From the NCBI GenBank assembly GCA_964480775.1, contig CAYZRF010000001.1:113462-145461 (forward strand): 32,000 nucleotides of DNA. Direction: 5' to 3'. A program made the translations under genes and the position numbers. Origin of the DNA: an uncultured Nitrososphaerota archaeon. GTDB lineage: Archaea; Korarchaeota; Korarchaeia; Korarchaeales; Korarchaeaceae. The stretch's first letter is position 1. Each line of letters opens with the position of its first letter. Below the pieces are notes generated by a model that saw only the letters and a list, made by a program, of their open reading frames with translations, was not told the DNA's origin and made no database searches. Positions 6,225-27,548 of the stretch are shown piece by piece.

Positions 6225-6292
6225 AGATTATTAAGAAGAATTAGATTGCGAGCTATCCATCTTAAAATGATTTATTTTAGAAGGGGGAGTTT

Positions 6293-6721
6293 ATGAAGAT
6301 AAGAAGACTTGTTCCAGACGACTATGAAAAGATTATTGAGCTATGGAAAGTGGCAGGACTACCCTATAAACCAAAGGGGAGAGATAGTAAGGAATCTATT
6401 GAAAAACAAATGAAAGAAAATCCAGAATTCTTCATCGGGGTATTTGTTGGGGATAAACTCGTAGGAACGGTTGTAGCTTCCTTTGACGGAAGAAAGGGAT
6501 GGATTAATAGACTAGCAGTTCACCCAAAGTACAGAAGAAGAGGAATAGGAGAACTTTTGATTAAGAAGGCAGAAGCCGTTCTTAAAGAAAAAGGAGCATG
6601 GATAATTTCTGCCCTCGTCGAAAAGGAGAACGAACCTTCCTTGAATTTATTCAGAAAGTGCGGTTACAAAATATCTAATGATGTAATCTATGTGAGCAAG
6701 AGAGATAGCGATCTTGTTTGA
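6293..6721 (+). CDS. GNAT-family N-acetyltransferase
   Basis: 142 aa with the acetyl-CoA binding motif LAVHPKYRRRGIGELLI (R/Q-x-x-G-x-G). A GGGGGA ribosome-binding site precedes the ATG. Confidence 0.85.
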   Translation: MKIRRLVPDDYEKIIELWKVAGLPYKPKGRDSKESIEKQMKENPEFFIGVFVGDKLVGTVVASFDGRKGWINRLAVHPKYRRRGIGELLIKKAEAVLKEKGAWIISALVEKENEPSLNLFRKCGYKISNDVIYVSKRDSDLV

Positions 6722-6750
6722 AGAGCTGTATAAGTTCTTCTGTCGTAGAG

Positions 6751-7155
6751 CTAACTAATGGATGATTTTCGACTTAACATGGATCTTACGGCCAGACCTG
6801 TTATAATTAAGGTGACTCCTGTAAAAATTAAGAAGGCTCTAATAGCAATAAGGACATAGGAGAGCGCACCTATTTTTATCCCAATCTTTTTCTTACCAAT
6901 AATGTCCGAAAGCCTTAATGTAACTTTGGATCCTCCAATCTCAACTGGCACTGTGACTTTACCCACAAGAGGATTATCTATCGATATATTAAATGAATAG
7001 GATGCGATTGGGACATCTATTTCTTCTGGAAGGAGATTTGAAACATCTATTTCAAAACTATCCGTTGAAGGAAGGAATATAGAACTCAAAATAAGCAAAC
7101 AGCCCAGAACAATGACCATAAACGGAAGAGCCCTTTCAGCCCAGAACAGTCTCAT
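6751..7155 (-). CDS. hypothetical small membrane protein (N-terminal and C-terminal TM segments)
   Basis: 134-aa ORF with hydrophobic segments at both ends. No recognisable family. Confidence 0.45.
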   Translation of the reverse strand: MRLFWAERALPFMVIVLGCLLILSSIFLPSTDSFEIDVSNLLPEEIDVPIASYSFNISIDNPLVGKVTVPVEIGGSKVTLRLSDIIGKKKIGIKIGALSYVLIAIRAFLIFTGVTLIITGLAVRSMLSRKSSIS

Positions 7156-7667: not shown

Positions 7668-8063
7668 TCAAAGCTTACCCTTTCCTGCTAAAACGATCAT
7701 GTACCTAGGATAGCTCATGTTCCTCGGAAGAGGAACTTCTGCACTCAATATCATGCTCGCTAGCTCCCTAAATTTCTGCTTAAATTCTCTGTATTCATTT
7801 CTTTCGATAACTTCTCTTCCTTTTTCGGTAAGGTGGAACCTCCTTTCCCCGTTTGTCTTTACAACCTCCTGGAATATCAATCTATAAAGAGTACTTCTAC
7901 TGGCATATCTCCCCAGCTTCTTAATTCCACCATACTTCTCATTAGCTTCTATTAGCATGAGAACAGCGAACTCTTCGTTCTCATATATCAGCTCCATCAG
8001 TTTCCTCAGCAGCTCATTTTGAGAATAGGGAAGTATAATGGGCTTAACCTCCTTGTGTTCCAT
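7668..8063 (-). CDS. hypothetical protein, probable winged-helix DNA-binding (PadR/MarR-like pattern)
   Basis: 131 aa. The segment RSTLYRLIFQEVVKTNGERRFHLTEKGREVIE resembles the recognition helix plus wing of PadR/MarR-type wHTH proteins. This is an assignment by eye only. Confidence 0.4.
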   Translation of the reverse strand: MEHKEVKPIILPYSQNELLRKLMELIYENEEFAVLMLIEANEKYGGIKKLGRYASRSTLYRLIFQEVVKTNGERRFHLTEKGREVIERNEYREFKQKFRELASMILSAEVPLPRNMSYPRYMIVLAGKGKL

Positions 8064-8954: not shown

Positions 8955-10184
8955 ATGAACCTAAAGAAGAGACTATCGCCCCTAGCCAAGTTGCTGAAAA
9001 ACAAAAACTTAGCACTAGTAGTGGTTTCATGGATCCTTTTTGCCTCCGCAGGACCTCTTTTCTGGCAGTTTGAATCGGATTACGCAAAGAGACTGGGAGC
9101 CTCTCCTGAAATAATTGGCATGATGAATTCTGTCTTCACCCTAATCAACATGTTAGTTCAAATTCCTGGTGGTTATCTAGCTGATAAAAAAGGGAGAAAA
9201 AAGCTCGTTGCATGGGGAACCTTTCTTGTTGGTTTTCCAAACCTAATCAGGGCTATGGCAGGGAGCTGGAGAAGCTATTTTTTGGCCACAGCCGTGTCAG
9301 TTCTAGTGGGTAATATTTACAATCCAGCACTCGTGGCAATATATCAAGATTCTCTTCCGCCAGACTCAAGAGCGTTTGGCTGGTCCCTAATAAACGGCAT
9401 ATCTTGGGCAATCCCAAGCACCATAAGCTCGTTGCTCGGAGGATATCTATACGAAAAATACGGATTGCTTGGTTTAAGGGCTGCTTTGGTGGCAAATGCT
9501 GCCGTTTGTTTCATAAACGGCATTTTAAGGTTTAACATGACTGAAACCTTAGAAAGAAGATCAGAATCTTCTCAGCAGACATCCCTTTTAGGCACAATTT
9601 CAAGTTTGAAAAGAGTCTTTTCATGGGCTTATGGTTCAGTGAAAGTTCTCTTAACCTTAGAAATCCTTTTTGGTGTAATTATGGGGATATCAGGTGCTTT
9701 CAGGCTTTTGTACGCTCTATATGTGATTGGAATAAGTAGAACTCAGTGGGGGATAATAGGAGCCGTCTATAATATGTTGTATTTTCCGCTTAGTCTGTAT
9801 ACGGGGAAGATATCTGATAAAGAGGGAAGAGTAAGACAAATGAGGTTAACGCCCATCATATGGGCGATTTCAAATCTGATATTTTTGACGGCCAAGAACT
9901 TTCAAGCAGTACTATTTTCTTGGATCTTAAGCGTGGTTGGCGATGCTTTTTGGAGACCTGGTTTCTCAGCAATTTGGATAGATGTTATTCCAAGGAAGAG
10001 AAGGGCTAGGATATTTTCAATTAGAACTCTTGCTGGTGGAATAGCTTCGACTATAGCTTATACCATAAGTGGCTTCTTATATGCAAAGAATGAAATGTAT
10101 CCTTTTATTGTGGTTATTTTAGTTGAGCTATTAATGATACCTCTCTTATTATACCTAAAAGAGCCCGAGATAAAAGAAATCTAG
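8955..10184 (+). CDS. MFS transporter
   Basis: Multi-TM protein with MFS motif A, GGYLADKKGRKKL, between TM2 and TM3. The ORF track starts at TTG 8856, but the first 33 residues are hydrophilic and non-MFS-like, so I prefer ATG 8955 (MNLKKRLSPL...). Confidence 0.8.
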   Translation: MNLKKRLSPLAKLLKNKNLALVVVSWILFASAGPLFWQFESDYAKRLGASPEIIGMMNSVFTLINMLVQIPGGYLADKKGRKKLVAWGTFLVGFPNLIRAMAGSWRSYFLATAVSVLVGNIYNPALVAIYQDSLPPDSRAFGWSLINGISWAIPSTISSLLGGYLYEKYGLLGLRAALVANAAVCFINGILRFNMTETLERRSESSQQTSLLGTISSLKRVFSWAYGSVKVLLTLEILFGVIMGISGAFRLLYALYVIGISRTQWGIIGAVYNMLYFPLSLYTGKISDKEGRVRQMRLTPIIWAISNLIFLTAKNFQAVLFSWILSVVGDAFWRPGFSAIWIDVIPRKRRARIFSIRTLAGGIASTIAYTISGFLYAKNEMYPFIVVILVELLMIPLLLYLKEPEIKEI

Positions 10185-10945
10185 GGCGTGCCCCATATAA
10201 GGTCGCACTTTTGGGCTACCTTTTGGAGAATCTCCGACGGTATTGAGAAAAGCTGTAAGGGATCCTTTACATATATGTAAATGAGATAACGCTTTGACAG
10301 CCTATCTAGACTTGCCATGGCGTACTCTGGTTTTTTAGGAAGCCTTTTTTCATACTCTGAGAATACTTCCTCGAGGATCTTCTCAATTTTCTCCGTCTGA
10401 AAATCCCTAGGAAATTCTATAGGCAGCACGTAGCATGTTAAATCCTTGCTTTTTCTCTTAAAGTTGGTTATTCTCAGGCCCATGACATCCTGATTGCTGA
10501 TCAACACATGATTGAGGCTGGGAGTAAGGATCTTTGTGTAATTAATGGACACCTCTTCAACTATCCCCTCTACGCCGTCCATTCTTACATAATCCCCGAC
10601 ATTGAAAGGACGTGAGATAAGGACGTAGAGTCCAGCAATGAAGTTTCCTATGCTCTTTGTGGACGCAAACCCGATGGCAGTTCCAGCTAATGCTGAGAAT
10701 CCAACAAACCAATCACTTGGAAGCCCACTAAGTTCAAATAAAGCAGCAACCCCGCCAAGTACGATTACAAATCTGCTAAGGGTTACCAGAGCATTTTCAG
10801 CGGTCGGAGAGAGTTCAACTCTGCTTGCGTACTTCTTCAAGTACTTAGTGGTTAACCTCTCTAACACCGTTGTGGCGACTAGGATTATGATGACCTTTAG
10901 CGCAATTGTCAAGTAATTGGGAAGCTCTTCAACTAATTCTGACAT
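10181..10945 (-). CDS. small-conductance mechanosensitive channel (MscS family)
   Basis: TM segments are followed by the MscS core GNFIAGLYVLISRPFNVGDYVRMDGVEGIVEEVSINYTKI. I prefer ATG at 10945 (MSELVEEL...); the track's start at 10978 is a TTG. The stop overlaps the MFS stop within a palindromic CTAG. Confidence 0.8.
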   Translation of the reverse strand: MSELVEELPNYLTIALKVIIILVATTVLERLTTKYLKKYASRVELSPTAENALVTLSRFVIVLGGVAALFELSGLPSDWFVGFSALAGTAIGFASTKSIGNFIAGLYVLISRPFNVGDYVRMDGVEGIVEEVSINYTKILTPSLNHVLISNQDVMGLRITNFKRKSKDLTCYVLPIEFPRDFQTEKIEKILEEVFSEYEKRLPKKPEYAMASLDRLSKRYLIYIYVKDPLQLFSIPSEILQKVAQKCDLIWGTP

Positions 10946-11004
10946 AAAACTCACCAAATTGAGGTACTTGAATACCAAATTCCCTCCTTAAAAGGAAGGA
11001 GTTT

Positions 11005-11256
11005 TTAAGATTTTTTGTCTTCAGATAGCGCCTTCTTAAGCGCATTGCTTATGTCTTCAAAAAGAGAGGGCTTTAAAGTACCAACGAGAAGAATAAGCAT
11101 TCCTATTACAAATATTGCATCGCTAAGAAATGCTTTGTCAAATTCTTCCTTTTCTATTTTTCTTATAAGCCTTCTAAGGGCTTCTGCAAGTAGTATTATT
11201 TGAATCGTAGCAAATATGCCTTTTTTAGCATCTATCTTAGACCAATCTTCTTCCAT
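11005..11256 (-). CDS. hypothetical small membrane protein
   Basis: 83-aa ORF with two hydrophobic helices, lying between glnA and the MscS gene on the same strand. Confidence 0.4.
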   Translation of the reverse strand: MEEDWSKIDAKKGIFATIQIILLAEALRRLIRKIEKEEFDKAFLSDAIFVIGMLILLVGTLKPSLFEDISNALKKALSEDKKS

Positions 11257-11305
11257 TGATCTTTATGCAACAGACACACAATAAAAAAGTAAAGCTTCTT
11301 GGGGC

Positions 11306-12655
11306 CTACACCCTAAGGAGATACCTCTTAAGTTCCCAATTTGTGATGGCTCTTGAAAATTCATCCCATTCCTTTTGAAGCTCATCCAGGTAGGCATTAA
11401 AGATCTCTTCTCCAATAAACTTCATTAAGACATAGTCATTTTTAGCTTCATCTATGGCTTCCATCAAGTTATGAGGTAACGTTTCAAACTGATCAGGCGT
11501 CATGTAGGCATTCCAATCGGTTGGATCCCCAAGGTCAAGATTTCTCTCTATACCGTCCATTCCAGCCGCAAGCACAGCAGTAAAGGCCAGATATGGATTA
11601 CAAGTAGGATCAGGCGCCCTAAACTCTATTCTACATCCATTGTTTTTAGAAGCTGGCACCCTGATTAGAGCAGACCGATTTCTATATCCCCAGCAGATGT
11701 AAACAGGAGCTTCATATCCAGGAACCAATCTCTTGTAAGAGTTGACTGTGGGAGCTACAAAGGCAGATAGAGCTTTTGCATGGTCTAATATACCCGCAAT
11801 AAAATGTTCTGCTGTCCTAGAGATTGAACCCTCTTTAGAGTCCCAAAACAGATTGTCCCCCTTTAGGTTTGATAAACTAATGTGAAGATGCATTCCAGAA
11901 CCATTTATTCCATTGAATGGCTTCGGCATGAAGGTGACTTGCAAACCAAACTCCAAAGCTACATTTTTCAGAATTTCTTTGTAGACTAGGATAGAATCAG
12001 CTGTCTTGAGGGCGTCGGAAAATTCAAAATCTATCTCATGTTGCCCTGGTGCAACCTCGTGATGTATGGCCTCAGGTCTTATTCCTGCCTCAGACAAAGC
12101 CCTTGCAAACTCGATATTTATTTTCACAGCTCTATCTTCGACTAAATCAAAGTAACTTCCGTCATCATACTTCTCCTCTGCTCTGAGAAGAAAAAATTCG
12201 ACCTCTGCACCTATGTTGAAGGTTAATCCCTGTTTTCCAAGCTTATCTAGAGATATTCTCAGTAATTCTCGTGAATCTCTCTCAAAAACTTCTCCATTGG
12301 GCTTTAAAATTACGCAAAAGAAGTTTCCAACCACTACTCCATGATGCTTTGATATAAAGAAACTATTAAGATCAGGTTTTAGAAACAGATCAGACTCTTC
12401 TATTCCAATAAATTTCAATGAGGACCCATCGAAACCTATTCCCTCTTCTAATGCTTTTTCAAAAAGGTCTGATGGAATAAAGAGGCCTTTAGGTCTGCCA
12501 ACAATATCAATGGTTCTGAGCAACAAGAACTTGATGTGTTGTTCCTCAATTTCTCTCTTTATCATTTCAACACCCTTTGATTCCTGAATTATCATTAGTT
12601 TCTCCCATAGAATTCTAATGAATACCAAACAAAAATTTCTTTGAAAAGAAGACAT
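11306..12655 (-). CDS. glnA: glutamine synthetase (type I)
   Basis: Shows the beta-grasp N-domain (IKFLLLRTIDIVGRPKG) and catalytic-domain motifs (HHEVAPGQHEIDF, NGSGMHLHISL, YEAP, NRSALIRVP). The true start may be an internal Met at 12595 or 12565, because the first 20-30 residues (MSSFQRNFCLVFIRILWEKL) look like a non-GS extension. Confidence 0.9.
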   Translation of the reverse strand: MSSFQRNFCLVFIRILWEKLMIIQESKGVEMIKREIEEQHIKFLLLRTIDIVGRPKGLFIPSDLFEKALEEGIGFDGSSLKFIGIEESDLFLKPDLNSFFISKHHGVVVGNFFCVILKPNGEVFERDSRELLRISLDKLGKQGLTFNIGAEVEFFLLRAEEKYDDGSYFDLVEDRAVKINIEFARALSEAGIRPEAIHHEVAPGQHEIDFEFSDALKTADSILVYKEILKNVALEFGLQVTFMPKPFNGINGSGMHLHISLSNLKGDNLFWDSKEGSISRTAEHFIAGILDHAKALSAFVAPTVNSYKRLVPGYEAPVYICWGYRNRSALIRVPASKNNGCRIEFRAPDPTCNPYLAFTAVLAAGMDGIERNLDLGDPTDWNAYMTPDQFETLPHNLMEAIDEAKNDYVLMKFIGEEIFNAYLDELQKEWDEFSRAITNWELKRYLLRV

Positions 12656-17081: not shown

Positions 17082-17974
17082 ATGTTGCCAGTTTCAAAAA
17101 GAAACATAGCTCTCAGTGAAGCTCTTCTCACAACATTTCTCTGGTCTTCTTCTTATATCCTAATTAAGCGTGGTCTAGTAATAATCAGTCCTCTTCTATT
17201 TGCTGGTAGTAGGTACTTTCTCGCCTTTCTTTGCCTATTGGCTGTTTTTCTCCTAACTAAGAGGAATTTACCAGCAATAAAAAGGAAGAAATGGGTTAAC
17301 CTCGCATTTTTAGGCCTTTCAGGATATGCAGGAATGCCTGCGTTCCAGTTCTTAGGTTTACTTTATCTTGGAGCGACTGATTCAGCATTCATCTCAAATT
17401 TCAATCCGCTATTGTGGCCCTCATTTCTTGGATCGTAAAAAAGAGGTCTCCTGGAAAAACGCAGTGGGTAGGATTTATTCTCTCGGTAGTTGGTGCAACC
17501 ATCTACTTTCTCCCAGAAATAGGGCTTAGATCAATGGATAAAGCTCTAGGTATGATATTCACCGCCATATCTGGTCTCTTTTGGGGAGTTTACATGGTGT
17601 TAGTTGAAAAAAGAAATTCTGAAGGATTGGACTCTCTCACAAGAACTACCATCTCAATGGGCTTAGGAAGCGCTCCACTTCTCCTCCTTTCCTTTGTAAT
17701 TGAAGGTACAGGGCTTGTAAAATCATCTTGGATATACATAGTGTGGTTAGGGGTAGTGAACACAGCGTTAGCCTTCACTTTGTGGATTCATTCTCTTGAG
17801 GAGCTAAGAGCATTTGAAACAGCAGTTTTGCAGAACACCATGCTAATTCAAATAGCTTTGCTCTCTATGCTATTTTTGGGCGAAACGTCTTCATCAAACA
17901 AGATAATTGGAATGATACTTGTACTTACAGGAGCTATTTTGGCCCAAAGGAGAATCAAAAACGACTCACAATAA
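17082..17974 (+). pseudogene. EamA/DMT-family transporter split into two ORFs (17082-17438 and 17414-17974) by a -1 frame change: pseudogene, sequencing indel, or programmed -1 frameshift
   Basis: The two ORFs (118 aa and 186 aa) together give the ~297-aa, ~10-TM architecture of EamA transporters. The second ORF is in the -1 frame relative to the first. The region where both frames are open is 17381-17435. Confidence 0.65.
17396..17402 (+). other. candidate -1 slippery heptamer A_AAT_TTC in the zero frame of the upstream EamA ORF
   Basis: The zero-frame codons are tcA AAT TTC (17394-17402). A slip to AAA TTT continues as CAA TCC GCT ATT GTG GCC CTC..., i.e. QSAIVALISWIVKK..., which is the downstream ORF's frame. 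Confidence 0.3.
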
Positions 17975-18007: not shown

Positions 18008-18697
18008 TCATCCACGCTCCATTAAAGGGACTATCCTCTCGAGTACATAGTTAATGAATGTCTCCTCATCTATCTTACTAAAAATGGTCACGACGCAGTT
18101 TCTGGTAAGTCCAACAACCAACCCATATTTCTTGTCCTCGAATACGACATACCAAATTTTCCCATGCTTGAGGTATTCATGGTATAAGGTGGTATCCTGG
18201 AGAGCGTTTCCATAAAGGGCCAACTTGTTTATATTTGGCAGATCGACCTGATCGAAGTAGATAACTTTAGTAGCCTCTGGATTGGATTCGTGTAACTCTT
18301 TTAGGGTCTCATGAGTTATCTTTGCCTCTACCACAGCCCCAGGTCCAGGAATAATTATCTCACCTAGCTTTGAGGCTATGTTGTTTGCTATTCTCCACTT
18401 TTCAACGACGAAAAGAAGCGTCGTTCTTTCATTCTCTGTGAAGAAAAAACCTGACTCTCTTGTAAATAAGTTGTATCTTTGTTCTCCCCTATAGGTGGTC
18501 GGAATTACCTTATCTTCAGAGTATATTCCCCACAAAAGATCTTTCCTAAAGTCAAGTTCTCTTATTTCACTCATCAGCTTTATTTCTTGTTCTCCATATT
18601 CTTCTACTCTTTCCATTTTCCAATCTTTTAGCTTTTCAGCAATAAGTTCTAATGGAATCCTCTCCTCAAGCTTGAAAAGCTTGCCTGCTAAAACCAT
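18008..18697 (-). CDS. hypothetical protein (about 229 aa), divergent from the SMC-like gene
   Basis: Long ORF with no recognisable motif. The track start at 18700 is TTG, and the adjacent ATG at 18697 is more likely. Confidence 0.5.
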   Translation of the reverse strand: MVLAGKLFKLEERIPLELIAEKLKDWKMERVEEYGEQEIKLMSEIRELDFRKDLLWGIYSEDKVIPTTYRGEQRYNLFTRESGFFFTENERTTLLFVVEKWRIANNIASKLGEIIIPGPGAVVEAKITHETLKELHESNPEATKVIYFDQVDLPNINKLALYGNALQDTTLYHEYLKHGKIWYVVFEDKKYGLVVGLTRNCVVTIFSKIDEETFINYVLERIVPLMERG

Positions 18698-18700
18698 CAA

Positions 18701-19000: not shown

Positions 19001-20815
19001 ATGCCATCAACTTACATCAAGGAAGTCGTGCTAGAGGACTTCATGTCCTACGAGTATTCTAGAGTACCTCTTAAACCAGGTCTTAATATAATAACAGGGC
19101 CTAATGGGGCCGGAAAGTCCTCGATAATACTAGGAATAGCCGTAGCGATGGGTCAAACATATACTGAGAGGTCTAGAAGGCTTAGGGATCTTATTAGAAG
19201 AGGAAAAAACGTTGCTCGTGTTACAGTAGTGCTTGACAATAGGCCAGTCGATGGAAAGAGGCCAATTCCCTTTTCAAGAAAAGATGAGGTCAGGATATCT
19301 CGATATCTAAGGTCTGACGGTACTTACTGGTTTGAAATGGACTATAAACCAATAGACAAGGCAGAAGTTGTCTACAGATTATCTCGTCTTGGAATAAACC
19401 CTAACAACATGTTAATCATAATGCACCAAGGTATGGTAGGCGATTTCAGCCGTCTTTCTGCAGAAGATAGATTAAAACTCGTTGAAGAGGCGGCTGGTCT
19501 ACATGAATATCGAGAAAGGATCTTAGATGCTAGGAAAAAATTAGAGGAGATAGTTAGTGAAGAGGAATCTCTAAAGGATCTACTCTCAAAAAGCGAAAAA
19601 ACAATGAATTATTGGGAAGAACAATACAAAAGGCTTCTTGAGAAGAGAGAAATCAAAGAAAAGCTTAGGAGCCTAAGACAAGAACTTGCTTGGTCCAAGT
19701 GGTGTCTTCAACTTAAGAATGTGGAGAAAATAAGGAGTAGGATAGCTAAAAGAGAGTTAGAAGCTGATAAATGGAAAAATAAGCTCATTAAAGCTGAAAA
19801 AAAGGCTAAAAACGCAAGAAAAGTCCTAAAGAAGTCCTGGGAGTCCTTAGAGGATGCCTTTTTAGAGCTCTCTGTTGAAGAAAGGGCGCTAGGTAGGATA
19901 GAAGCATCGTCGAAAGAATCAATAAAGGACGCGATGAAAAGCGTTGAAACCGCTAGAGCAAAAGTTGAGGCACTAAAAGCCTCTTTCTTCAAGAAGCAGG
20001 AGGAGCTTATAGAAGCATCTGTTGAGAAAGCACTGAGCGATTTTAGGCTAAAGATGATACAGACAGAAATATCAAGACTTAGGAGAAAGTTATTGGAAGC
20101 AGAGCAAAAGCTTTCAGAACTAGAGAAAGAAGCGTTGAATATAGGTCCGAAGGTAGAGACCGAAAGATCTCCTGATGAAATAATACAAGAGATAAGATTT
20201 GCTTCAGCTAGACTTTCTAGCTTAACAGATGTATCTGACGAAACTGAACAGATGTACTTGAATTATACGAAAATGCTTGAAGAGCTAAGGGAAAAAGCAA
20301 GAATTCTTGCAGAGAATAAAAAAGCGGCTATTAGAGAGCTTGAAGAAAGGAGTAAATTATGGAGAAGAAGGCTAAGGGCTCTAATAGGTGAGGTAAACAA
20401 GACATTTAACGACATTTTAGAGAGACTTGATGCCAGAGGCGAAGTCAGACTCTCAGATTTAGAAGACGTCGAAAAGGCGGGCCTGAGAATCTTTGTAGGG
20501 TATAGAGGAGCTCCTCTTGCAGAGTTGGATCCCTTCACGCAGAGCGGAGGAGAAAGGAGTACTGCCATAATAGCTTTTCTCCTATCCCTTCAAAAACAAA
20601 TGAAGTCTCCTATAAGAGTAGTAGATGAGTTTGATGTTCATATGGATCCAGCCAACAGGGAGAGAATGTTCGAGCAAATATTTGAAATACTTAAAGAAGC
20701 TGGAGGACAGAGCATCTTTGCTACACCTAGAAGGCTAGTTGGATTAAAAGCGGGTACACACATAATCGTTGTCCAAAATGTTGAAGGAATCTCAAAGATA
20801 AGAGAAGTTAGCTAA
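19001..20815 (+). CDS. SMC-family ATPase, half-length and hinge-less (Smc5/6-like head motifs)
   Basis: N-head: YIKEVVLEDFMSYEYSRVPLKPGLNIITGPNGAGKSSIILGIAVAMG (Walker A), then IMHQGMVGDFSRLSAEDRLKLVEEAAGLHEY. C-head: GEVRL..GLRIFVGYRG..L..FTQSGGERSTAIIAFLLSLQ (signature motif, Q at 20540), PIRVVDEFDVHMDP (Walker B/D-loop), FATP. Between them lie about 285 residues of Glu/Lys/Leu-rich heptad-like sequence. I see no Gly-rich hinge domain and no CxxC zinc hook. AGGAG lies 7 nt before the ATG. Confidence 0.85.
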   Translation: MPSTYIKEVVLEDFMSYEYSRVPLKPGLNIITGPNGAGKSSIILGIAVAMGQTYTERSRRLRDLIRRGKNVARVTVVLDNRPVDGKRPIPFSRKDEVRISRYLRSDGTYWFEMDYKPIDKAEVVYRLSRLGINPNNMLIIMHQGMVGDFSRLSAEDRLKLVEEAAGLHEYRERILDARKKLEEIVSEEESLKDLLSKSEKTMNYWEEQYKRLLEKREIKEKLRSLRQELAWSKWCLQLKNVEKIRSRIAKRELEADKWKNKLIKAEKKAKNARKVLKKSWESLEDAFLELSVEERALGRIEASSKESIKDAMKSVETARAKVEALKASFFKKQEELIEASVEKALSDFRLKMIQTEISRLRRKLLEAEQKLSELEKEALNIGPKVETERSPDEIIQEIRFASARLSSLTDVSDETEQMYLNYTKMLEELREKARILAENKKAAIRELEERSKLWRRRLRALIGEVNKTFNDILERLDARGEVRLSDLEDVEKAGLRIFVGYRGAPLAELDPFTQSGGERSTAIIAFLLSLQKQMKSPIRVVDEFDVHMDPANRERMFEQIFEILKEAGGQSIFATPRRLVGLKAGTHIIVVQNVEGISKIREVS

Positions 20816-20914
20816 ACAAACAACCTTTTATGACATTCTATCCGCTTTGTGGAGAGTGAAAATTTGAAATAGAAACATATAAGATAACCTACTTAGATGA
20901 AAATCCCTCTAAAC

Positions 20915-20925
20915 TTTTATTTTTT
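20915..20925 (+). promoter_or_regulatory. TTTTATTTTTT element: TATA-like box for the Roadblock gene and/or oligo-T terminator of the SMC-like gene
   Basis: It lies 25-35 nt upstream of the Roadblock start (GTG 20950 / ATG 20959) and 100 nt downstream of the SMC-like stop. The two roles cannot be told apart from sequence. Confidence 0.25.
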
Positions 20926-20949
20926 CAACCATTACTCCAGTGGCCAAGG

Positions 20950-21327
20950 GTGACATTCATGTCCGTTTCAGGTTCTGACCTTAACTCTCTCTTAGAAGGA
21001 TGCGTAAAACGTACACCCGGAATGGAAGCAGTGGCTCTTGTAACTATGGATGGACTCATTATGGCATCATCGCTTCCATCTGGCTCTGGTGAAGAAAGGG
21101 TGGCAGCAATGTCTTCTGCCTTACTTAGTATTGCATCGAGAATAACTGAGGAGCTAGAAAAAGGAGAATTTCAAAGAGCTCTTGTGGCTGGTTCAGAAGG
21201 ATTCATCGTTTTGGTTCCATCTGGTGATAACTTTCTTCTAACCGCTGTATGTTCTAGGGATGCAAGGTTAGGTATGGTTCTTTTTGAAATAAACAAACTA
21301 GCAGAGTTTTTGTCTGAAAGGCAATAA
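20950..21327 (+). CDS. Roadblock/LC7 (MglB-like) domain protein
   Basis: 125 aa. GMEAVALVTMDGLIMASSLPSG..EERVAAMSSALLSIASRITEELEKGEFQRALVAGSEGFIVLVPSGDNFLLTAVCSRDARLGMVLFEI is the classic Robl_LC7 alpha-beta-alpha pattern. The start is GTG 20950 or ATG 20959. Confidence 0.8.
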   Translation: MTFMSVSGSDLNSLLEGCVKRTPGMEAVALVTMDGLIMASSLPSGSGEERVAAMSSALLSIASRITEELEKGEFQRALVAGSEGFIVLVPSGDNFLLTAVCSRDARLGMVLFEINKLAEFLSERQ

Positions 21328-21354
21328 CTTCATATGTAAAAAGATAACCCAAAG

Positions 21355-21363
21355 TTTTTTTTT
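21355..21363 (+). terminator. oligo-T (T9) tract, candidate archaeal intrinsic terminator after the Roadblock gene
   Basis: TTTTTTTTT begins 28 nt after the stop codon at 21325-21327. Archaeal RNAP is known to terminate at oligo-T tracts. Confidence 0.45.
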
Positions 21364-21445
21364 AAAACAAAAGTATTATCCCCACCTTGCCTTTTGAACA
21401 GAATTTGAAACTGAATTTCCTTAATTAGTTAAATTTGTATTTTGA

Positions 21446-21510
21446 TTTTTTATATGGGGTGGCTGTATCTTATAATTGTAATTGTAAGATTATCTATACT
21501 ATCTATCAAT
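21446..21510 (+). promoter_or_regulatory. candidate promoter/operator of the kleisin-kite operon
   Basis: TATA-like TTTTTATAT (21446-21454) and CTTATAATT (21469-21477). An imperfect 20-bp palindrome CTTATAATTGTAATTGTAAG (21469-21488, 16/20 self-complementary) contains tandem TAATTG TAATTG. A direct repeat ATCTATA/ATCTATC lies at 21492-21507. GAGG lies 8 nt before ATG 21530. Confidence 0.3.
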
Positions 21511-21529
21511 AGAAAGCGAGGCACGATAA

Positions 21530-22333
21530 ATGAAATCCAAACAAAAGAGAAGAAGAGAGATACTGCTTAGGATACTGGACTTATGCGAGAAGACCCTGAG
21601 AGAGGAGACAGATCCTTTTCAGGTCGATGTTGTTCAGCTATTTAAAAAATTAAGACAACTTCTCCCAGAACTCGAGACAGAAGAAGAACTTTACTTGGAC
21701 TTAGAGGCAGTCCTTGGTCTAACTTCAGTAATACTGAAGCAAGAGGAGTGGATCAGATATAGATCCTCTCTCATGTTTTTGGATCCACTTCTGGTTCTTC
21801 TAAAAATAGAGAAACTGGATGACAAAGATCTTGCTGATGTGCTTCGGAGGAGTTGGAGGCCAATCGTTGAGGCTAGAGGAGTCTCCCCCTTGTTTCTTGA
21901 AAGGGCTGTTGAATACTGGAGGACCCTTCCAGCCCTCGAAGAAAGAAAGTTGGAATTGATAGAAGAGAATGAGTCAACAGGAACTCTTTCTCTTTCAGAG
22001 CTAGCGGCTCTAGGATTCGCCTCTGAGGAGGAATTCTTGTCCTTTCTGGAAAGCGAAGAAAATAGACTAAAGAAAGAAGCCAAAAAGAGAGGAGGCGAGG
22101 TTCCATACTGGGAGTTTATTGGTGCAATAACCTTTGAAGAAACCATAAAAAGAGCCTATCTTGTAAGTTTTCTCTGTAGCTATGGAAAAGCTACAATAAG
22201 AAGAGATCCTCTCTCAGGCGAAATGTGGCTTGTTCCTTTGGAGAAACCACTAGGAACCAAGGTTTCCCTCGCAATACCTATAGATGAAGAAAGGTGGAAG
22301 AGAAATGTCAGAAGAGGCAGAGCTAAGAGCTAA
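21530..22333 (+). CDS. kleisin-like protein (ScpA / Nse4-type SMC-bridging subunit)
   Basis: The N-terminal DPFQVDVVQLFKKLRQLL...LEAVLGLTSVILKQEEWIR parallels the archaeal ScpA N-domain (DPW.IDIVEL.DKYL ... LLAASILL+.K as I recall it). The middle is acidic and linker-like. The C-terminal IKRAYLVSFLCSYGKATIRRDPLSGEMWLVP resembles the kleisin C-terminal winged helix that binds the SMC head cap. Confidence 0.6.
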   Translation: MKSKQKRRREILLRILDLCEKTLREETDPFQVDVVQLFKKLRQLLPELETEEELYLDLEAVLGLTSVILKQEEWIRYRSSLMFLDPLLVLLKIEKLDDKDLADVLRRSWRPIVEARGVSPLFLERAVEYWRTLPALEERKLELIEENESTGTLSLSELAALGFASEEEFLSFLESEENRLKKEAKKRGGEVPYWEFIGAITFEETIKRAYLVSFLCSYGKATIRRDPLSGEMWLVPLEKPLGTKVSLAIPIDEERWKRNVRRGRAKS

Positions 22334-22865
22334 GTTGAGAAGAGCAGCTCACATGCTCTTCTTTAGAACCCACTCTAAGCCAGGAGTGAAGGGCTGGGAG
22401 CTCAAGAAAGGTCTTGGAAGAAACTACCTTCAGGTAATAGACTTACTTAACAGGGAATTGGAGAAGATAGGTCTTAGGGTGGAAGCAATCTCACAGGAAG
22501 GAGAGAAACCGAAAGATGAGCAAGATCTTCTTTACAGTAGCTTCTTTGTTACCTTCAAGGATCCTCCAGACTGGCCAGAAATAAGAGGTTCAGGATGGAG
22601 AATAGATGAAATGGCTGCCTTAACGGCATGTCTCTCTTTAATCCTATCAAGGGGTGGTAAGGTAAGGAGGAAGGAGATAGATGAACTACTTGAGAAGAAA
22701 ATACCTTCATGGAGGGCTAGAGCCATAGTTGAGAGGTTCTTTAGAATGGGATACCTCTCCCTTGGTGAGGAAGACGAAGTCATTGTAGGTTGGAGGAGCA
22801 GAGTTGAGATAGATTTACAAAAACTCATGAGCCTACTTCTTGGCAAAGAGACAGAAAGCGCTTGA
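22305..22865 (+). CDS. tandem winged-helix 'kite'-type protein (ScpB / MAGE-Nse3-like)
   Basis: I prefer the start at ATG 22305, with GGTGG 7 nt upstream; the track's ATG at 22284 has no RBS. It overlaps the kleisin stop by 29 nt, implying translational coupling. WH-A: AAHMLFFRTHSKPGVKGWELKKGLGRNYLQVIDLLNRELEKIGLRVEAIS...LYSSFFVTF. WH-B: DEMAALTACLSLILSRGGKVRRKEIDELLEK..ARAIVERFFRMGYLSLGEEDEVIVGWRSRVEIDLQKLMSLL. This layout matches the MAGE homology domain, including a terminal W-G-x-R-x-x-x-E-like element. Confidence 0.55.
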   Translation: MSEEAELRAKLRRAAHMLFFRTHSKPGVKGWELKKGLGRNYLQVIDLLNRELEKIGLRVEAISQEGEKPKDEQDLLYSSFFVTFKDPPDWPEIRGSGWRIDEMAALTACLSLILSRGGKVRRKEIDELLEKKIPSWRARAIVERFFRMGYLSLGEEDEVIVGWRSRVEIDLQKLMSLLLGKETESA

Positions 22866-22928
22866 TCAATTTTGATACCATAAACTTATATCTCAACAGT
22901 TTCCTAAACTGACACAAAGGTGTAATTT

Positions 22929-23345
22929 GTGAGTTCTGGGATCTTGAAAACTGTAGGATCCTTTTTGGACCAAATGGGTGTTAAGTACGCCCTAGATGAA
23001 GAGAAAGGGCTAATCTTAAGCAACTGGTCCATAGAGGACAAGCCCTTTACCGTAGGCGTATGGGCTGCAGGTCCTTGGTTGATAATCAGAGGCTATATAC
23101 TTCCAAAATCAATGATTCCAGGAGAAAAAGAACTTAAACTTTACAAAGAACTGTTAAATACTCACTATATCTTAGCAGAGGTCAGATATGATATAGATGA
23201 GGAGGGAAACATAGGAACAACCCAATCAATCCCCTTAGAGGGCCTTAACATAAGCAACTTTCAATCAGAATTTAATGCAGTTCTCTATGCAATTAAGTTC
23301 TTTCTAACAGATATAGCCGGGAAACTAGGTATAGAAATAAGTTAA
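22929..23345 (+). CDS. YbjN-like (T3SS-chaperone-like fold) protein, tentative
   Basis: 138 aa, GTG start with AAGGTG 7 nt upstream. The layout FLDQMGVKYALDEEKG..., FTVGVWAAGPWLIIRGYI, LYKELLNTHYILAEVRYDIDEEGNI resembles YbjN/DUF-type 'sensory transduction regulator' domains. Assignment by eye only. Confidence 0.4.
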   Translation: MSSGILKTVGSFLDQMGVKYALDEEKGLILSNWSIEDKPFTVGVWAAGPWLIIRGYILPKSMIPGEKELKLYKELLNTHYILAEVRYDIDEEGNIGTTQSIPLEGLNISNFQSEFNAVLYAIKFFLTDIAGKLGIEIS

Positions 23346-23573: not shown

Positions 23574-24056
23574 TTGGTATTAGAAGGAGAGGACTTGATC
23601 TCATTCTTGAAAAAACAGATAGATTTGGAGAATATGATAGTAGAGGAAGGGAATAAAAGTGTTAAAGGCGTTGAAAACGTGCTTGTAAGGGAATTAATAA
23701 GAGGAATAGCCTTGGATTCCATGAAACACGCAAACATGTTAGAGGCAATGATTGCCCTAATATCTGGGGCCAAGATCTTTTTAACCGAGGAGGAGAGCGA
23801 AAGGATTGGTGAACAAATAAAAAGACACATAGCGCTTGAAAAACAAGCAATTGAGACCTATTCAACTTTGCTTGAGCATATAACTGATGAGAGGACGAGA
23901 TTACTAGTAGAGTACATTCTTAAGGATGAGAGAAGACACCACGAACTACTTCTAAAAATAGACGAGATTATTGTCAAAGCTGAAACTTTAAAGGAAGAAG
24001 ACCTGTGGGAAATGGTTTGGAAGTATTCAGTTTTCCACGGAGCTCCAGGAGGGTAA
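23574..24056 (+). CDS. ferritin-like / rubrerythrin-like four-helix-bundle protein
   Basis: 160 aa, helical, with paired E...(D/E)xxH patterns (LENMIVEEG...DSMKHANMLE; LEKQAIETY...KDERRHHELL) typical of ferritin-like di-iron folds. The track's TTG start is uncertain. Confidence 0.5.
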   Translation: MVLEGEDLISFLKKQIDLENMIVEEGNKSVKGVENVLVRELIRGIALDSMKHANMLEAMIALISGAKIFLTEEESERIGEQIKRHIALEKQAIETYSTLLEHITDERTRLLVEYILKDERRHHELLLKIDEIIVKAETLKEEDLWEMVWKYSVFHGAPGG

Positions 24057-24078: not shown

Positions 24079-24666
24079 ATGATCCGATATAAGTTCTTAG
24101 TGACAGATATGGATGGAACCCTTGTGACGTTAGACATAGACTGGGATGAGTTAAGAGAAAGAGTCAGAGAAATAATAAAGACAGATCATCCTCTGAAACC
24201 TTTAGGACCCAGCATTCTAGAGACAACAGAGGGAAATGAAGAACTTAGAAAAAAGGCGTTTGATCTTGTAGAAAGCGAAGAAGTTAGGGCAGCTCTTGGT
24301 GCTTTTCCAGACCCAGAACTCAAGGCAATGCTTTCAAGGCTTAAGGATAAAGGAGTAAGAATGGCTCTCATCACATTTCAATCGGCTAAACCTGCTACTA
24401 TAGCCCTAAAGAGACTCGAAGTGTTACCGTTCTTTGAGTTCTTGATAACTAGGGAATACTCACTAAACAGGAAGAAACAACTCTCAATAGCATTAGAACG
24501 CCTAAAGGCAGATCCTAGAAGGACTGTTTTTGCTGGAGACTCCTCTTGGGATGTCTTAGCTGGAAAAGAGCTTGGTTGTTATACCGTGGTTGTACGAAGA
24601 AAAATAGAAGGCGCTGATCTTTTCGTTGAAAAATTTGTAGAGCTTGAGAGGGTATTTTCGGATTAA
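24079..24666 (+). CDS. HAD-superfamily hydrolase (phosphatase)
   Basis: Motif I LVTDMDGTLV (DxDGT), motif II ALITFQS, and a C-terminal VFAGDSSWDVLAG (motif IV, GDxxxD). Confidence 0.8.
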   Translation: MIRYKFLVTDMDGTLVTLDIDWDELRERVREIIKTDHPLKPLGPSILETTEGNEELRKKAFDLVESEEVRAALGAFPDPELKAMLSRLKDKGVRMALITFQSAKPATIALKRLEVLPFFEFLITREYSLNRKKQLSIALERLKADPRRTVFAGDSSWDVLAGKELGCYTVVVRRKIEGADLFVEKFVELERVFSD

Positions 24667-27548
24667 TACAACCTCCATCTCTCTTTAAACCTTCTTGAAG
24701 CCAAACTCTTTCTTTCTTCATAAAGAAGTTCATAAAATTTCGAGGAGAGCCTTGGCTCTTCTGCTAGAATCTTCTCTATTGTATTCTGAGGAAGTCCGCT
24801 AACCAATGCTATAGCTGCTACCTTACCAAATTTGGAGATTAAGAAGGCAGATCTCCTTAAATCTCTCCAAATCCTTTTACTTTCTTTGTTAAGAGCTCCT
24901 TCTTTTGATCTAGTGAGAACTAATCCAACTTCGAATTCATCAGCATCGGTCATGCCAATTAACTTAGAGCCACAGATCGGACACATAAGTTCATCATCTA
25001 GTCTATGTAGCTCGATCTCTTCGATATATCCCTTACACTCAAGACAAGCAAAAGTCCTTAATTGACTTAACAACTCCACTTTCATCTTTGCAACTTTCAA
25101 AGTTCTCTTCCTCTCCAAAGGAACCCTTTCCAACTTTCTTGTTATGAGATCCACTCCAATCTTTGCAATCGGGGTTGGATTCTCAAGTTCTCCTACGCAT
25201 ATCACTTCAACTTCTCCACTGTTTATCCTCATTAGTAGTCTTTCTGCACCTTTGAGGTCTATATCTCTCTCAATGGCCTCTCTAAAAGCTTCTTTATAGA
25301 CGGGAGTATCTCTTAAGGCATCTATTAGGTTATCGACGAACTCTCTGCTTAGTGTGGCTCCTTTCTCCAATATTCCCATCTTTCTAGCTGCCTGGGTTAT
25401 CCTAAATCTAAAGAAACCACTCTTCTCCATCGTTCTCCTCACAAGCGTGGCGATGTCTGGTCCGCTTTCTTCTCTAAGGATCGTTGAAACTTCCTCAGGA
25501 GAAACTTGACCCTTAAGGTATATCCTATAAGGATCTTCGCTAACAGCAACGGGTTTTGCAAATCTTTCGGTCAACGCCTCAGAAATAAACCTGGATAGAG
25601 CTCTGTTTATTAGAGTTCCACCAAGAACGTGAACTGTTACAAGGTCTTTGTAGGATTCGACAACAATTCTTCTGTCGTTTGGAACTGGGAAACCAGATTT
25701 ACATTGCTCAAGAATTGGTTCTATGCCTCTAGCTATAAAATCAGGCGTAGACTGGTACTTTCGAGATAGCTCCTCCGCTATCTCCGATAAGGTCTTTCCT
25801 TCTTTAAACCTCTCCTCAACAAACCGCCTAATAAATCCTACCTCTTGTGCCACCTCATAGGGAACGGGGATTTCCTCTCCAACCCAGCTTGGAACGGCTC
25901 CTAAGGGATCCTCAGCTCTCTTTATATATACACGATCCTCAAAAACTTGAACTACTGTCCAAACTTCGCCAGCCATTATGAACTTAACCCCGGGCTTTCC
26001 ATATTCTGCCACGAAAGGCTCGTCTAAAATACCGACTGGCTCTTCTGAGTCCTGATCTATTACTAAATACTGTTTCACATCTGGTATCATAGACAGGTTC
26101 TCGAAATAGTATGTGTAAATTCTCTCAGGGGGGCCCACCCTAAAGAACTCAACTTCCTTGAAGGAGAGCCCTAGAAAGGGACTTCTCATATGGGCCATGA
26201 ACCTCAAAAGCTCCACAAATTCTTCAAATCCCAAATTTCTGTAGTTATAAGCTCCTTTAATAATTACATAAGCTTCATCTACGGCCCATCTCTTCTTTAT
26301 AAGAAGAAAACCAGCTATCTCATGCATTAAAGCATCTAGAGGTTTATCAGGGATCTTCACAGGCTCAAGCTCATCCGACATTGCCCTTCTAGCTACAACA
26401 AGGGCCTCGATTGCATCATCAGAGTTTTGAACTATAACCGTACCTTTAGAAATAGCACCTACTCTGTGCCCACTTCTTCCAACCCTCTGAACCAATCGAG
26501 TTGCCTGTCTTGGGGAGTTGTACTGTATCACCATATCTATGGATCCTATATCTATGCCAAGTTCTAAGCTTGAAGTCGCTATCAAAGCTTTTAATGTCCC
26601 AGATTTTAGTCCTCTCTCAGCTCTAAGCCTGCTCTCTAGGGCCAGAGACCCGTGATGCACATTTATCGGAATTGAGACATCCCAGAGCTTAAACCTGCTT
26701 CCAAGAACTTCTGTCATGGGTCTTGTATTCGTAAATATTAGGCAGGATTTAGAAGATTCAACGATTTTCTTTATACAACGAAGCCTAGCTGCAACATCTG
26801 GATATGTGTACAATTTTGAAGCGAGTTTAACATCCTCTGGGGTGGGCTTTGGATATGCTATCTCAACTCTCATCAACTTGACTATGGGTACGTATATCAT
26901 CTCATAAGAGTCTGAGGATCCAACCAGAAAGCGTGCAACATCCTCAGGGCTGCCTACTGTAGCTGAGAGCCCTATTATCTGGAAATCTCCTTTCTTCAAC
27001 CATTTTAGCCTTTCCAGGGCTAAAGCAAGCTGAGCACCTCTCTTGCTCTCAGCTAGCTCATGGATCTCATCTATGATAACGTGTCTCACAGTTAGTAGGT
27101 TCTCCCTCAGTTTTCTGCCAATGAGCATTATCTGCAAAGTTTCAGGCGTGGTTACTAATATGTCAGGAGGCATATCGGCCTGAGTCCTTCTTTCTCTCAC
27201 GGAAGTGTCTCCGTGTCTTACCCCTATTGAAAGATCCAGTTTACTGCACCACCATTGTAGCCTATCCATTAAATCCCTGTTCAAAGCCCTCAGCGGGGTT
27301 ATATACAGAACTTTAACCCCTCTTATCCTCTTTTCTTCTAAGAGTTTGCTTAACACAGGAAGAAAAGCTGCCTCTGTCTTACCTGTTCCGGTTGCGGCTA
27401 TTAAGAGCACATTTTTGCCCTCTAATATAGGTTTAATCGCCTTGGCTTGGGGATCCGTTGGTTCCATGAAACCTTTTTCCTCTACTAGTCTTTTAACTGG
27501 CTCTGCAAGCATTTCGAAAGCATTAGAGTTTGTGGAAGAGAATTCCAT
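24663..27548 (-). CDS. lhr: Lhr-type large superfamily-2 helicase (DEAD/DEAH box plus Lhr-associated domains, C-terminal zinc ribbon)
   Basis: 961 aa. Q-motif/Walker A PTDPQAKAI...LLIAATGTGKTEAAFLP, DEIHEL (motif II), SAT, TSSLELGIDIG, QRVGRSGH (motif VI), then a long Lhr-type C-terminal region with CLEC...CPIC. Confidence 0.9.
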   Translation of the reverse strand: MEFSSTNSNAFEMLAEPVKRLVEEKGFMEPTDPQAKAIKPILEGKNVLLIAATGTGKTEAAFLPVLSKLLEEKRIRGVKVLYITPLRALNRDLMDRLQWWCSKLDLSIGVRHGDTSVRERRTQADMPPDILVTTPETLQIMLIGRKLRENLLTVRHVIIDEIHELAESKRGAQLALALERLKWLKKGDFQIIGLSATVGSPEDVARFLVGSSDSYEMIYVPIVKLMRVEIAYPKPTPEDVKLASKLYTYPDVAARLRCIKKIVESSKSCLIFTNTRPMTEVLGSRFKLWDVSIPINVHHGSLALESRLRAERGLKSGTLKALIATSSLELGIDIGSIDMVIQYNSPRQATRLVQRVGRSGHRVGAISKGTVIVQNSDDAIEALVVARRAMSDELEPVKIPDKPLDALMHEIAGFLLIKKRWAVDEAYVIIKGAYNYRNLGFEEFVELLRFMAHMRSPFLGLSFKEVEFFRVGPPERIYTYYFENLSMIPDVKQYLVIDQDSEEPVGILDEPFVAEYGKPGVKFIMAGEVWTVVQVFEDRVYIKRAEDPLGAVPSWVGEEIPVPYEVAQEVGFIRRFVEERFKEGKTLSEIAEELSRKYQSTPDFIARGIEPILEQCKSGFPVPNDRRIVVESYKDLVTVHVLGGTLINRALSRFISEALTERFAKPVAVSEDPYRIYLKGQVSPEEVSTILREESGPDIATLVRRTMEKSGFFRFRITQAARKMGILEKGATLSREFVDNLIDALRDTPVYKEAFREAIERDIDLKGAERLLMRINSGEVEVICVGELENPTPIAKIGVDLITRKLERVPLERKRTLKVAKMKVELLSQLRTFACLECKGYIEEIELHRLDDELMCPICGSKLIGMTDADEFEVGLVLTRSKEGALNKESKRIWRDLRRSAFLISKFGKVAAIALVSGLPQNTIEKILAEEPRLSSKFYELLYEERKSLASRRFKERWRLY

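Follow-up and report, generated by a model that had tools for sequence, protein, structure and literature searches.

The closest described relatives of the system examined here are archaeal. Yoshinaga and Inagaki (2021) defined an "SMC5/6-related aSMC" in TACK and other archaea, accepting sequences of 500 to 1500 amino acids (aa) and removing coiled coils before building trees; many of these archaea carry a separate canonical Smc-ScpAB (PMC8665677). van Hooff, Raas, Tromer, and Eme placed these SMCs in operons with an Nse4-related kleisin and an Nse1/3-related kite, finding kleisin and kite neighbors in 31 of 31 cases. Their operons occur in TACK, Asgard, and Hadarchaeota, including Bathyarchaeota and P. 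syntrophicum, and Thermofilales is flagged for kleisin and kite; Asgard members that they name are P. syntrophicum NZ_CP042905.1_495 and Heimdallarchaeota LC_3 MDVS01000027.1_69 (10.1101/2024.01.07.573240). In published trees, TACK and Hadarchaeota proteins of this kind group with Smc5/6 (PMC8665677; 10.1101/2024.01.07.573240). We analyzed a 32,000-nucleotide (nt) stretch of the Korarchaeaceae contig CAYZRF010000001.1, hereafter the window, which carries genes for an SMC-family ATPase, a kleisin, and a kite; coordinates count from window position 1. This trio is a member of the published class: the head of the ATPase ranks nearest to Smc5, the adjacent kleisin is Nse4 related, and the adjacent kite is Nse1/3 related and has the MAGE fold. 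The trio shares with the published operons its gene order, its taxa (Thermoproteota/TACK, Hadarchaeota, and Asgard), and its Smc5/6 affinity, and the window adds lineage-specific insertions of Roadblock, YbjN-like, rubrerythrin-like, and HAD genes.

An earlier note, made from the letters of this DNA alone, had proposed that five co-oriented genes form a minimal complex of the Smc5/6 type and had implied that this was new. The open reading frame (ORF) listing contains all five ORFs, between positions 19001 and 23345, at the places claimed for them. GC content is approximately 40% over the whole region, without a compositional break, and no Rfam families were found in the window. The main idea, that of an archaeal Smc5/6-like trio, is correct. 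It is not new, because Smc5/6-related archaeal SMCs and their operons with an Nse4-like kleisin and an Nse1/3-like kite have already been published (PMC8665677; 10.1101/2024.01.07.573240). A text search of these two publications and their supplements found no mention of the short length, the missing hinge, Lhr, or a fourth gene; the architecture may have been noted elsewhere. As set out below, the conserved unit is very probably a three-gene archaeal Smc5/6-related SMC complex, likely a DNA clamp or tether, and not a five-gene system.

The first gene of the cluster (19001 to 20815, plus strand) encodes a short, hingeless, Smc5/6-related ATPase of 604 aa. Its membership in the SMC family was confirmed by a Pfam match to SMC_N (E = 1.1e-28, residues 5 to 584). 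The best NCBIfam match was SMC_prok_A (TIGR02169), at 200 bits against a cutoff of 729. When we compared the ATPase with PDB sequences, human and yeast Smc5 ranked best (E = 6.5e-33 to 2e-31), followed by prokaryotic Smc heads (E of approximately 1e-24). Because a coiled-coil artifact had to be excluded, we then queried the PDB with the two head halves alone (residues 1 to 172 plus 456 to 604, phmmer). Yeast Smc5 scored 119.5 bits and human SMC5 114, compared to 88 for the archaeal Smc of P. furiosus and 80 for Smc6, with lower matches to Smc3 (77), Smc2 (74), and Rad50 (38). The view that the head lies nearer to eukaryotic Smc5 than to condensin thus held when the arms were removed. Two other families were considered for the ATPase and rejected. 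NCBIfam matches to Rad50, ASRP, arcadin-4, and RecN were restricted to the Walker A region; for ASRP/ClsN/Sph this match reached 44 bits against a cutoff of 300 and there is no zinc hook; arcadin-4 was set aside as well.

All of the head motifs listed in the earlier note (LEDFMSY, GPNGAGKS, QSGGERS, VVDEFDVHMDP, and ATP) are present in the sequence, and we examined their conservation in an alignment of the ATPase family that comprises 17 diverse relatives (A3). In the Walker A motif GPNGAGKS (residues 33 to 40; 19097 to 19120, plus strand), six of eight residues are invariant, and A37 is replaced by S in some members. The ABC signature QSGGERS (residues 514 to 520; 20540 to 20560, plus strand) is invariant from S515 to R519 and aligns with TQSGGER of Smc5. 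In the Walker B/D-loop segment VVDEFD (20618 to 20635, plus strand), which aligns with RVVDEIN of Smc5, D542, E543, and F544 are invariant. The ATP motif sits where the H-loop His would be; here, the pair T575 and P576 (20723 to 20728, plus strand) is invariant and aligns with ITPKLL of yeast Smc5. Written out as pairs, the window and Smc5 sequences read FTQSGGER/HTQSGGER, RVVDEFD/RVVDEIN, and FATPRR/ITPKLL. The head is a split ABC head, with Walker A and Q-loop in the N-terminal half and signature, Walker B, and D-loop in the C-terminal half. Across the 17 relatives, little or no variation is seen in Walker A, Q-loop Gln143, the signature, Walker B Glu543, or the D-loop, and the ATPase accordingly looks catalytically competent.

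Canonical SMC proteins total approximately 1100 to 1200 aa, with an arm of approximately 45 to 50 nm and 340 residues per strand. The window ATPase has neither the length nor the hinge of such a protein, and the earlier observation that it is half the normal size with no recognizable hinge applies to its whole family. A word-indexed search returned more than 1,000 homologues. The best 120 of them all measure 552 to 683 aa and derive from Hadarchaeota, MSBL1, Bathyarchaeia, Nitrososphaerota/Thaumarchaeota, and a metagenome-assembled genome (MAG) labeled Hodarchaeaceae; 60 full-length copies from independent contigs measure 554 to 681 aa. Pfam listed no SMC_hinge match for the window ATPase at E values up to 1, nor is SMC_hinge one of the 25 families most widely shared by the 17 members that were scanned. 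The middle 240 residues of the 60 full-length relatives contain no CxxC zinc hook.

The arm region spans approximately residues 172 to 455 (19514 to 20365, plus strand), giving an inter-head region of approximately 284 aa, with neither hinge nor CxxC. Its only Gly/Pro breaks lie at residue 298 and residues 382 to 391, a pattern that fits an antiparallel coiled coil of approximately 130 to 140 residues per strand and roughly 20 nm, with its hairpin turn near residue 300 (residues 298 to 305). In the family alignment, conservation is seen in the heads and neck and in a stretch near ELAWSK and VETERSPDE; the center is unconserved, and its length varies by approximately 90 columns.

These lengths also bear on a more conventional explanation, that the locus encodes a canonical archaeal condensin, Smc-ScpAB, with a truncated or misassembled SMC gene. 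SMC_prok_A is the best NCBIfam match of the ATPase, and the weaker fold matches of its partners include structures of ScpA and ScpB. Set against this, the SMC_prok_A score falls far short of that model's cutoff, a single uninterrupted ORF holds both head halves, and the relatives from independent contigs are of similar size, so the ATPase is not a truncation of a longer protein. Moreover, Nse4 and Nse3 are closer matches for the kleisin and kite than are ScpA and ScpB, and neither ScpA (PF02616) nor ScpB (PF04079) gave a Pfam match at E values up to 1. We regard a truncated or misassembled condensin as extremely improbable.

The kleisin gene (21530 to 22333, plus strand) encodes a protein of 267 aa with an N-terminal helical domain, a flexible middle, and a C-terminal winged helix. 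It has no Pfam or NCBIfam match, and its identity as a ScpA/Nse4-like kleisin, first suggested by the earlier note, is supported by profile and fold searches. A profile built from 17 kleisin sequences (A1) and searched against the PDB matched the human NSE4 paralogue EID3 (9lwi_D, E = 1.9e-6) over its C-terminal region, followed by yeast Nse4 (E = 0.0098), the ScpA N-terminal domain 6ivh (E = 0.026), and ScpA C-terminal domains (E = 0.3 to 0.5). The AlphaFold2 (AF2) model has confident N-terminal helices (residues 1 to 78), a confident C-terminal winged helix (residues 160 to 240), and between them a middle of low confidence, which is the pattern that a kleisin should show. When the model was searched with Foldseek, the best matches were all cap-binding domains of kleisins: the C-terminal winged-helix domain (C-WHD) of ScpA on the Smc head (4i99_C; template modeling [TM] score 0.81 on the target, root-mean-square deviation 2.4 Å), and further yeast Nse4 (7qcd_F and 7tve_G), B. 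subtilis ScpA-C, Scc1-C, and RAD21-C. The protein is a Nse4-like kleisin.

The kite gene follows directly. Its ORF is listed from position 22284; however, homologues begin at the second Met, which sets the gene at 22305 to 22865 (plus strand, 186 aa). With this start, it overlaps the kleisin gene by 29 nt, the figure given in the earlier note. The kite has no Pfam match, and a profile of 19 kite sequences (A2) searched against the PDB had a single meaningful match, Xenopus Nse3 (7dg2_C, "MAGE domain-containing protein"; E = 0.0029). An AF2 model of the kite (predicted local distance difference test score [pLDDT] 83, predicted TM score [pTM] 0.74) contains two winged-helix domains. The top Foldseek match of this model was again Nse3 7dg2_C (E = 3.5e-6, TM score 0.60), and next came MAGE-G1 and Nse1 (5hvq), Nse1 (7dg2_A), MAGE-A4, and yeast Nse3/Nse1; ScpB (3w6j_F, E = 0.017) and MukE (E = 0.02) were weaker. 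That Nse3, MAGE, and Nse1 rank above ScpB and MukE supports a kite of the MAGE type, and the protein is closest to Nse3/Nse1. Profile, model, and fold search together bear out the tandem winged-helix, MAGE-like kite of the earlier note, and the two products do have the kleisin and kite folds on which its proposal depended.

We surveyed 90 related loci for conservation of the cluster. Ten were obtained by exact look-ups and a scan of genome contigs, and 80 were taken from the 535 relatives that the kite profile detected in metagenomes. In the genome-contig scan, which used the SMC alignment, the Walker A pattern swamped the results: most matches were canonical SMCs of bacteria and archaea, and just two (L001 and L002) were true members of the family. 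We scored all ORFs of the surveyed loci by hidden Markov model (HMM) searches and phmmer, and we use as denominators the loci that could be assessed for each feature. The kleisin gene lies directly upstream of the kite gene in 74 of 74 assessable loci, and the SMC-like gene lies upstream in 58 of 58. The SMC and kleisin genes of most relatives adjoin or overlap each other, as at 7905/7905 in L081 and 2914/2915 in L089. The window and each of the 90 loci have one SMC-like gene and one kite gene. Loci with organism names belong to Hadarchaeota, Thermofilales, Nitrososphaerota/Thaumarchaeota, and a MAG labeled Hodarchaeaceae; the nearest relatives that carry a name are MAGs designated "Thermoproteota archaeon." These data support a genuine, strongly co-conserved SMC-type trio of ATPase, kleisin, and kite. 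Co-conservation of all five genes, on which the earlier note had relied, extends to these three and fails for the other two.

Those two genes encode a Roadblock/LC7 protein (20950 to 21327, plus strand, 125 aa), located between the ATPase and kleisin genes, and a CesT/YbjN-like protein of candidate fold (22929 to 23345, plus strand, 138 aa), located after the kite gene. The Roadblock identification was sound: the protein matches PF03259 at 54.5 bits (E = 1e-14), above the Pfam gathering cutoff of 23, and 7f8m in the PDB (E = 1.1e-20). For the 138-aa protein, CesT_Tir_1 matches over nearly the full length below threshold (E = 7.5e-5; 23.1 bits, cutoff 27), and the PDB gave no sequence match; a CesT/YbjN-like fold is plausible. 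If both belonged to a minimal Smc5/6-type machine as genuine accessory subunits, the complex would have five subunits. The five genes are indeed co-oriented and tightly spaced, both in the window and in its 91%-identical relative L085/L086. Across the survey, however, Roadblock was found in only one locus, L085, and is missing from the other 89, and the YbjN-like gene was found in L085 and L092 and is missing from the other 88. The abutting or overlapping SMC and kleisin genes of most relatives leave no space for an extra gene.

L092 has approximately 77% DNA identity to the window. Here, homology breaks off at the stop codon of the SMC gene and picks up again where the kleisin gene starts; the 713 nt at window positions 20816 to 21528, including Roadblock and its AT-rich flanks, are cleanly replaced by 156 nt. 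Roadblock is absent from L092, and the YbjN-like, rubrerythrin-like, HAD, and Lhr genes are all present there. In the window, Roadblock is separated from its neighbors by AT-rich spacers of 134 and 202 nt, with an oligo-T run at 21352 to 21362 after the stop codon, which suggests that it is a separate transcription unit; TATA-like motifs between the genes are not decisive as to operon structure. Two further genes located between the YbjN-like gene and Lhr, encoding a rubrerythrin/ferritin-like protein (23574 to 24056, plus strand) and a HAD hydrolase (24079 to 24666, plus strand), are present only in the closest relatives L085 and L092. Given the occurrence of Roadblock and the YbjN-like gene in one and two of 90 loci and the clean indel relative to L092, we conclude that these genes, together with the rubrerythrin-like and HAD genes, are recent insertions in one narrow lineage and not subunits. 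The accessory role that the earlier note had given to Roadblock and the YbjN-like protein does not survive this comparison, and a five-subunit complex is highly improbable.

We grouped the flanking ORFs of the related loci by unsupervised clustering, which identified just two further recurrent neighbors, both missed by the earlier note. The first is up230, a 230-aa protein of unknown family whose gene (18008 to 18700, minus strand) is divergent from the SMC-like gene. Homologues that are 44 to 53% identical occur in Hadarchaeota, Nitrososphaerota, and others. Of 49 assessable loci, 25 contain the gene, and in 18 it is adjacent, in each case on the opposite strand; it adjoins the SMC-like gene in L081, L083, L085, L087, and L091, does so partly in L089, and lies 3.9 kb off in L084. 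An exhaustive HMMER search placed 135 cluster representatives in the family at 50% clustering, nearly all of them 220 to 235 aa long. No match to up230 was found in Pfam (single sequences and 43 members), NCBIfam, PADLOC, or, by profile, the PDB. Profile-profile comparison gave no link to the kite family, so up230 is not a second, Nse1-like kite. We regard up230 as a candidate fourth component or co-regulated partner of the operon.

The other, which forms the second most recurrent cluster of neighbors, is an Lhr-type helicase of 961 aa (24663 to 27548, minus strand), convergent to the operon. Lhr is downstream in 14 of 45 assessable loci, in several Thermoproteota lineages that are distant from one another. 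Homologues that are 45 to 62% identical lie beyond the kite gene in convergent orientation in L001 (Thermofilales; 3951 to 6788), L084 (Nitrososphaerota; 9477 to 12389), L089 (4649 to 7585), L090 (5736 to 8141), and L091 (10996 to 13807); in L090 and L091 the gene was called as two ORFs, split or frameshifted. In the window, Lhr is displaced from the kite gene by the inserted genes. A different pair of genes follows the operon directly in L087 (9363 to 11489): Pur_DNA_glyco, a 3-methyladenine-type DNA glycosylase, and a gene with a metallo-beta-lactamase fold (Lactamase_B_2, weak RMMBL). The L087 pair is a further hint of a DNA-repair context. L090 also carries, on the minus strand at 9516 to 10562, a dCTP deaminase (DCD) gene with an intein, in which an Intein_splicing domain lies between two DCD halves.

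The main rival to a chromosomal role is that the locus is an anti-phage or anti-plasmid defense system resembling Lamassu or Wadjet, in which the ATPase would sense foreign DNA and up230 would be the effector. Lamassu LmuB is likewise hingeless and approximately 600 aa long, and eukaryotic Smc5/6 and Wadjet both restrict extrachromosomal DNA. In PADLOC, the window ATPase matched mad3 (E = 1e-33) and, over nearly its full length, LmuB (E = 1.1e-28), and up230 has no known fold or function. The ATPase is nevertheless far stronger against TIGR02169 and, with the head only, against Smc5. PADLOC gave no match for the kleisin, the kite, or up230, and neither a nuclease domain nor the Lamassu and Wadjet partners LmuA, LmuC, JetA, JetB, and JetD were matched beside the ATPase. 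The other PADLOC results were a match of the ATPase to JetC (1.8e-6), a spurious match of Roadblock to PglZ (E = 0.024), and no match for the YbjN-like protein.

The setting of the loci likewise argues against defense, since they lie in housekeeping neighborhoods and not in defense islands. Among the relatives, the operon adjoins FtsZ, SecE, Spt5, and L11 or, elsewhere, an RNA polymerase large-subunit gene (Rpb1 domains 4 to 5), a NusA-like KH protein, and an Obg-like GTPase. Members of the family are 42 to 47% identical across phyla with synteny kept, which fits vertical inheritance. In the window, the neighbors of the operon are metabolic or transport genes. A pair of hydantoinase/oxoprolinase A and B subunit genes at 2481 to 6224 (plus strand) provides an ordinary metabolic context and indicates that the region is not a defense or mobile island. 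Overall, a defense system is very unlikely, if slightly less so than a five-subunit complex.

Close to up230, an EamA-family transporter gene (17082 to 17974, plus strand) is present as two overlapping ORFs of 118 and 186 aa. The split is a frameshift near residues 115 to 119, and L085 has a single gene of 305 aa; the split gene is either a pseudogene or the product of a sequencing error.

With these identities, the trio can be compared to other SMC systems. Eukaryotic Smc5/6-Nse shares with it the TQSGGER signature, Thr-Pro at the position of the H-loop His, the Nse4-type C-terminal winged helix of the kleisin, and the MAGE/Nse3-type kite. The window differs in having one SMC gene, whose product presumably forms a homodimer, instead of Smc5 plus Smc6, one kite gene instead of Nse1 plus Nse3, and a hingeless ATPase with arms predicted at approximately 20 nm instead of the approximately 50 nm of eukaryotic Smc5/6. 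Pfam found no RING protein, Nse2 SP-RING SUMO ligase, or Nse5/6 among the ORFs of the cluster or the 27 window ORFs scanned, and these may lie elsewhere in the genome. Smc-ScpAB has the same set of SMC, kleisin, and tandem winged-helix kite and the same operon logic, and the window kleisin C-WHD superposes on ScpA-C, as described above for 4i99_C. In contrast to Smc-ScpAB, the window system has no hinge, half-length arms, no Pfam ScpA or ScpB, and a kite and kleisin nearer to Nse3 and Nse4.

A split ABC head, a short antiparallel coiled coil, and the lack of a globular hinge are features that the window ATPase appears to share with Rad50/SbcC, RecN, LmuB, and an actinobacterial clade. Rad50/SbcC differs in that the window family has no CxxC zinc hook and the window head scores far higher against Smc5 than against Rad50. 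Rad50 and RecN are without kleisin and kite partners, whereas the window ATPase has both. The actinobacterial "hinge-less SMC" clade, reported from the ocean (PMC12153180), is a different, bacterial lineage from the window family.

By analogy with these systems, we propose how an archaeal Smc5/6-related SMC complex of three subunits would be built. Two copies of the 604-aa ATPase would engage through their ATP-bound heads. One Nse4-like kleisin would bridge both, its N-terminal helical domain binding one SMC at the neck and its C-terminal winged helix binding the other at the cap, and a dimer of the single Nse3/Nse1-like kite would sit on the kleisin middle. ATP-driven head engagement would then clamp DNA on top of the heads and beneath the kleisin and kites, as in DNA-bound Smc5/6. 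Because arms of approximately 20 nm that end in an unconserved hairpin, with neither hinge nor zinc hook, make a large hinge-closed compartment improbable, the complex probably cannot form the compartment of a hinge-closed SMC. Most likely, the three-subunit complex serves chromosome maintenance or repair by clamping or tethering DNA under the control of ATP, and is not a defense system; up230 and the often-adjacent Lhr helicase may be involved in it. The Lhr and glycosylase neighbors, together with the Smc5/6 affinity, suggest a role in DNA repair or replication-fork maintenance.

Several points weigh against this interpretation. The Smc5 affinity of the ATPase is a ranking of bit scores against PDB chains and not a phylogeny of our own. 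The kleisin model is of moderate quality (pLDDT 66), and its fold matches have modest E values of approximately 1e-3; the latter reflect the small size of the matching domain. Assembly of the three proteins into a complex is predicted by analogy with the structures of Smc-ScpAB and Smc5/6, and the proposal that the arm tips do not dimerize draws on their lack of sequence conservation. The case for DNA repair comes from the neighborhood, that is, from the downstream Lhr genes and from the glycosylase and Lactamase_B_2 genes of L087. Finally, a short hingeless ATPase also resembles ATPases of defense systems such as LmuB.

The archaeal roots of Smc5/6 have already been published, and this locus adds nothing new to that claim. 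Its remaining interest lies in the hingeless short-arm architecture of the whole family, in the uncharacterized up230, and in the linkage to Lhr. The locus also cautions against inferring a complex from the gene order of one genome, as the Roadblock and YbjN-like genes were local insertions. ATPases of half length and without a hinge that keep both kleisin and kite challenge the notion that SMC complexes with a bound kleisin inherently have a hinge-closed ring, and they offer a naturally minimal system to biochemistry and structural study, with up230 and Lhr as testable candidates for partners and a repair function. We tentatively raise the possibility, which we hold to be well short of probable, that the archaeal sister of eukaryotic Smc5/6 is, family-wide, a hingeless, short-armed machine working with up230 and, in Thermoproteota, Lhr, and that it acts as a repair or replication-fork clamp and not as a loop extruder. 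If this is true, the hinge and long arms of Smc5/6 would be a eukaryotic or Asgard re-acquisition, or would have been lost in these archaea, and the minimal requirements of SMC-kleisin-kite function would be directly testable.

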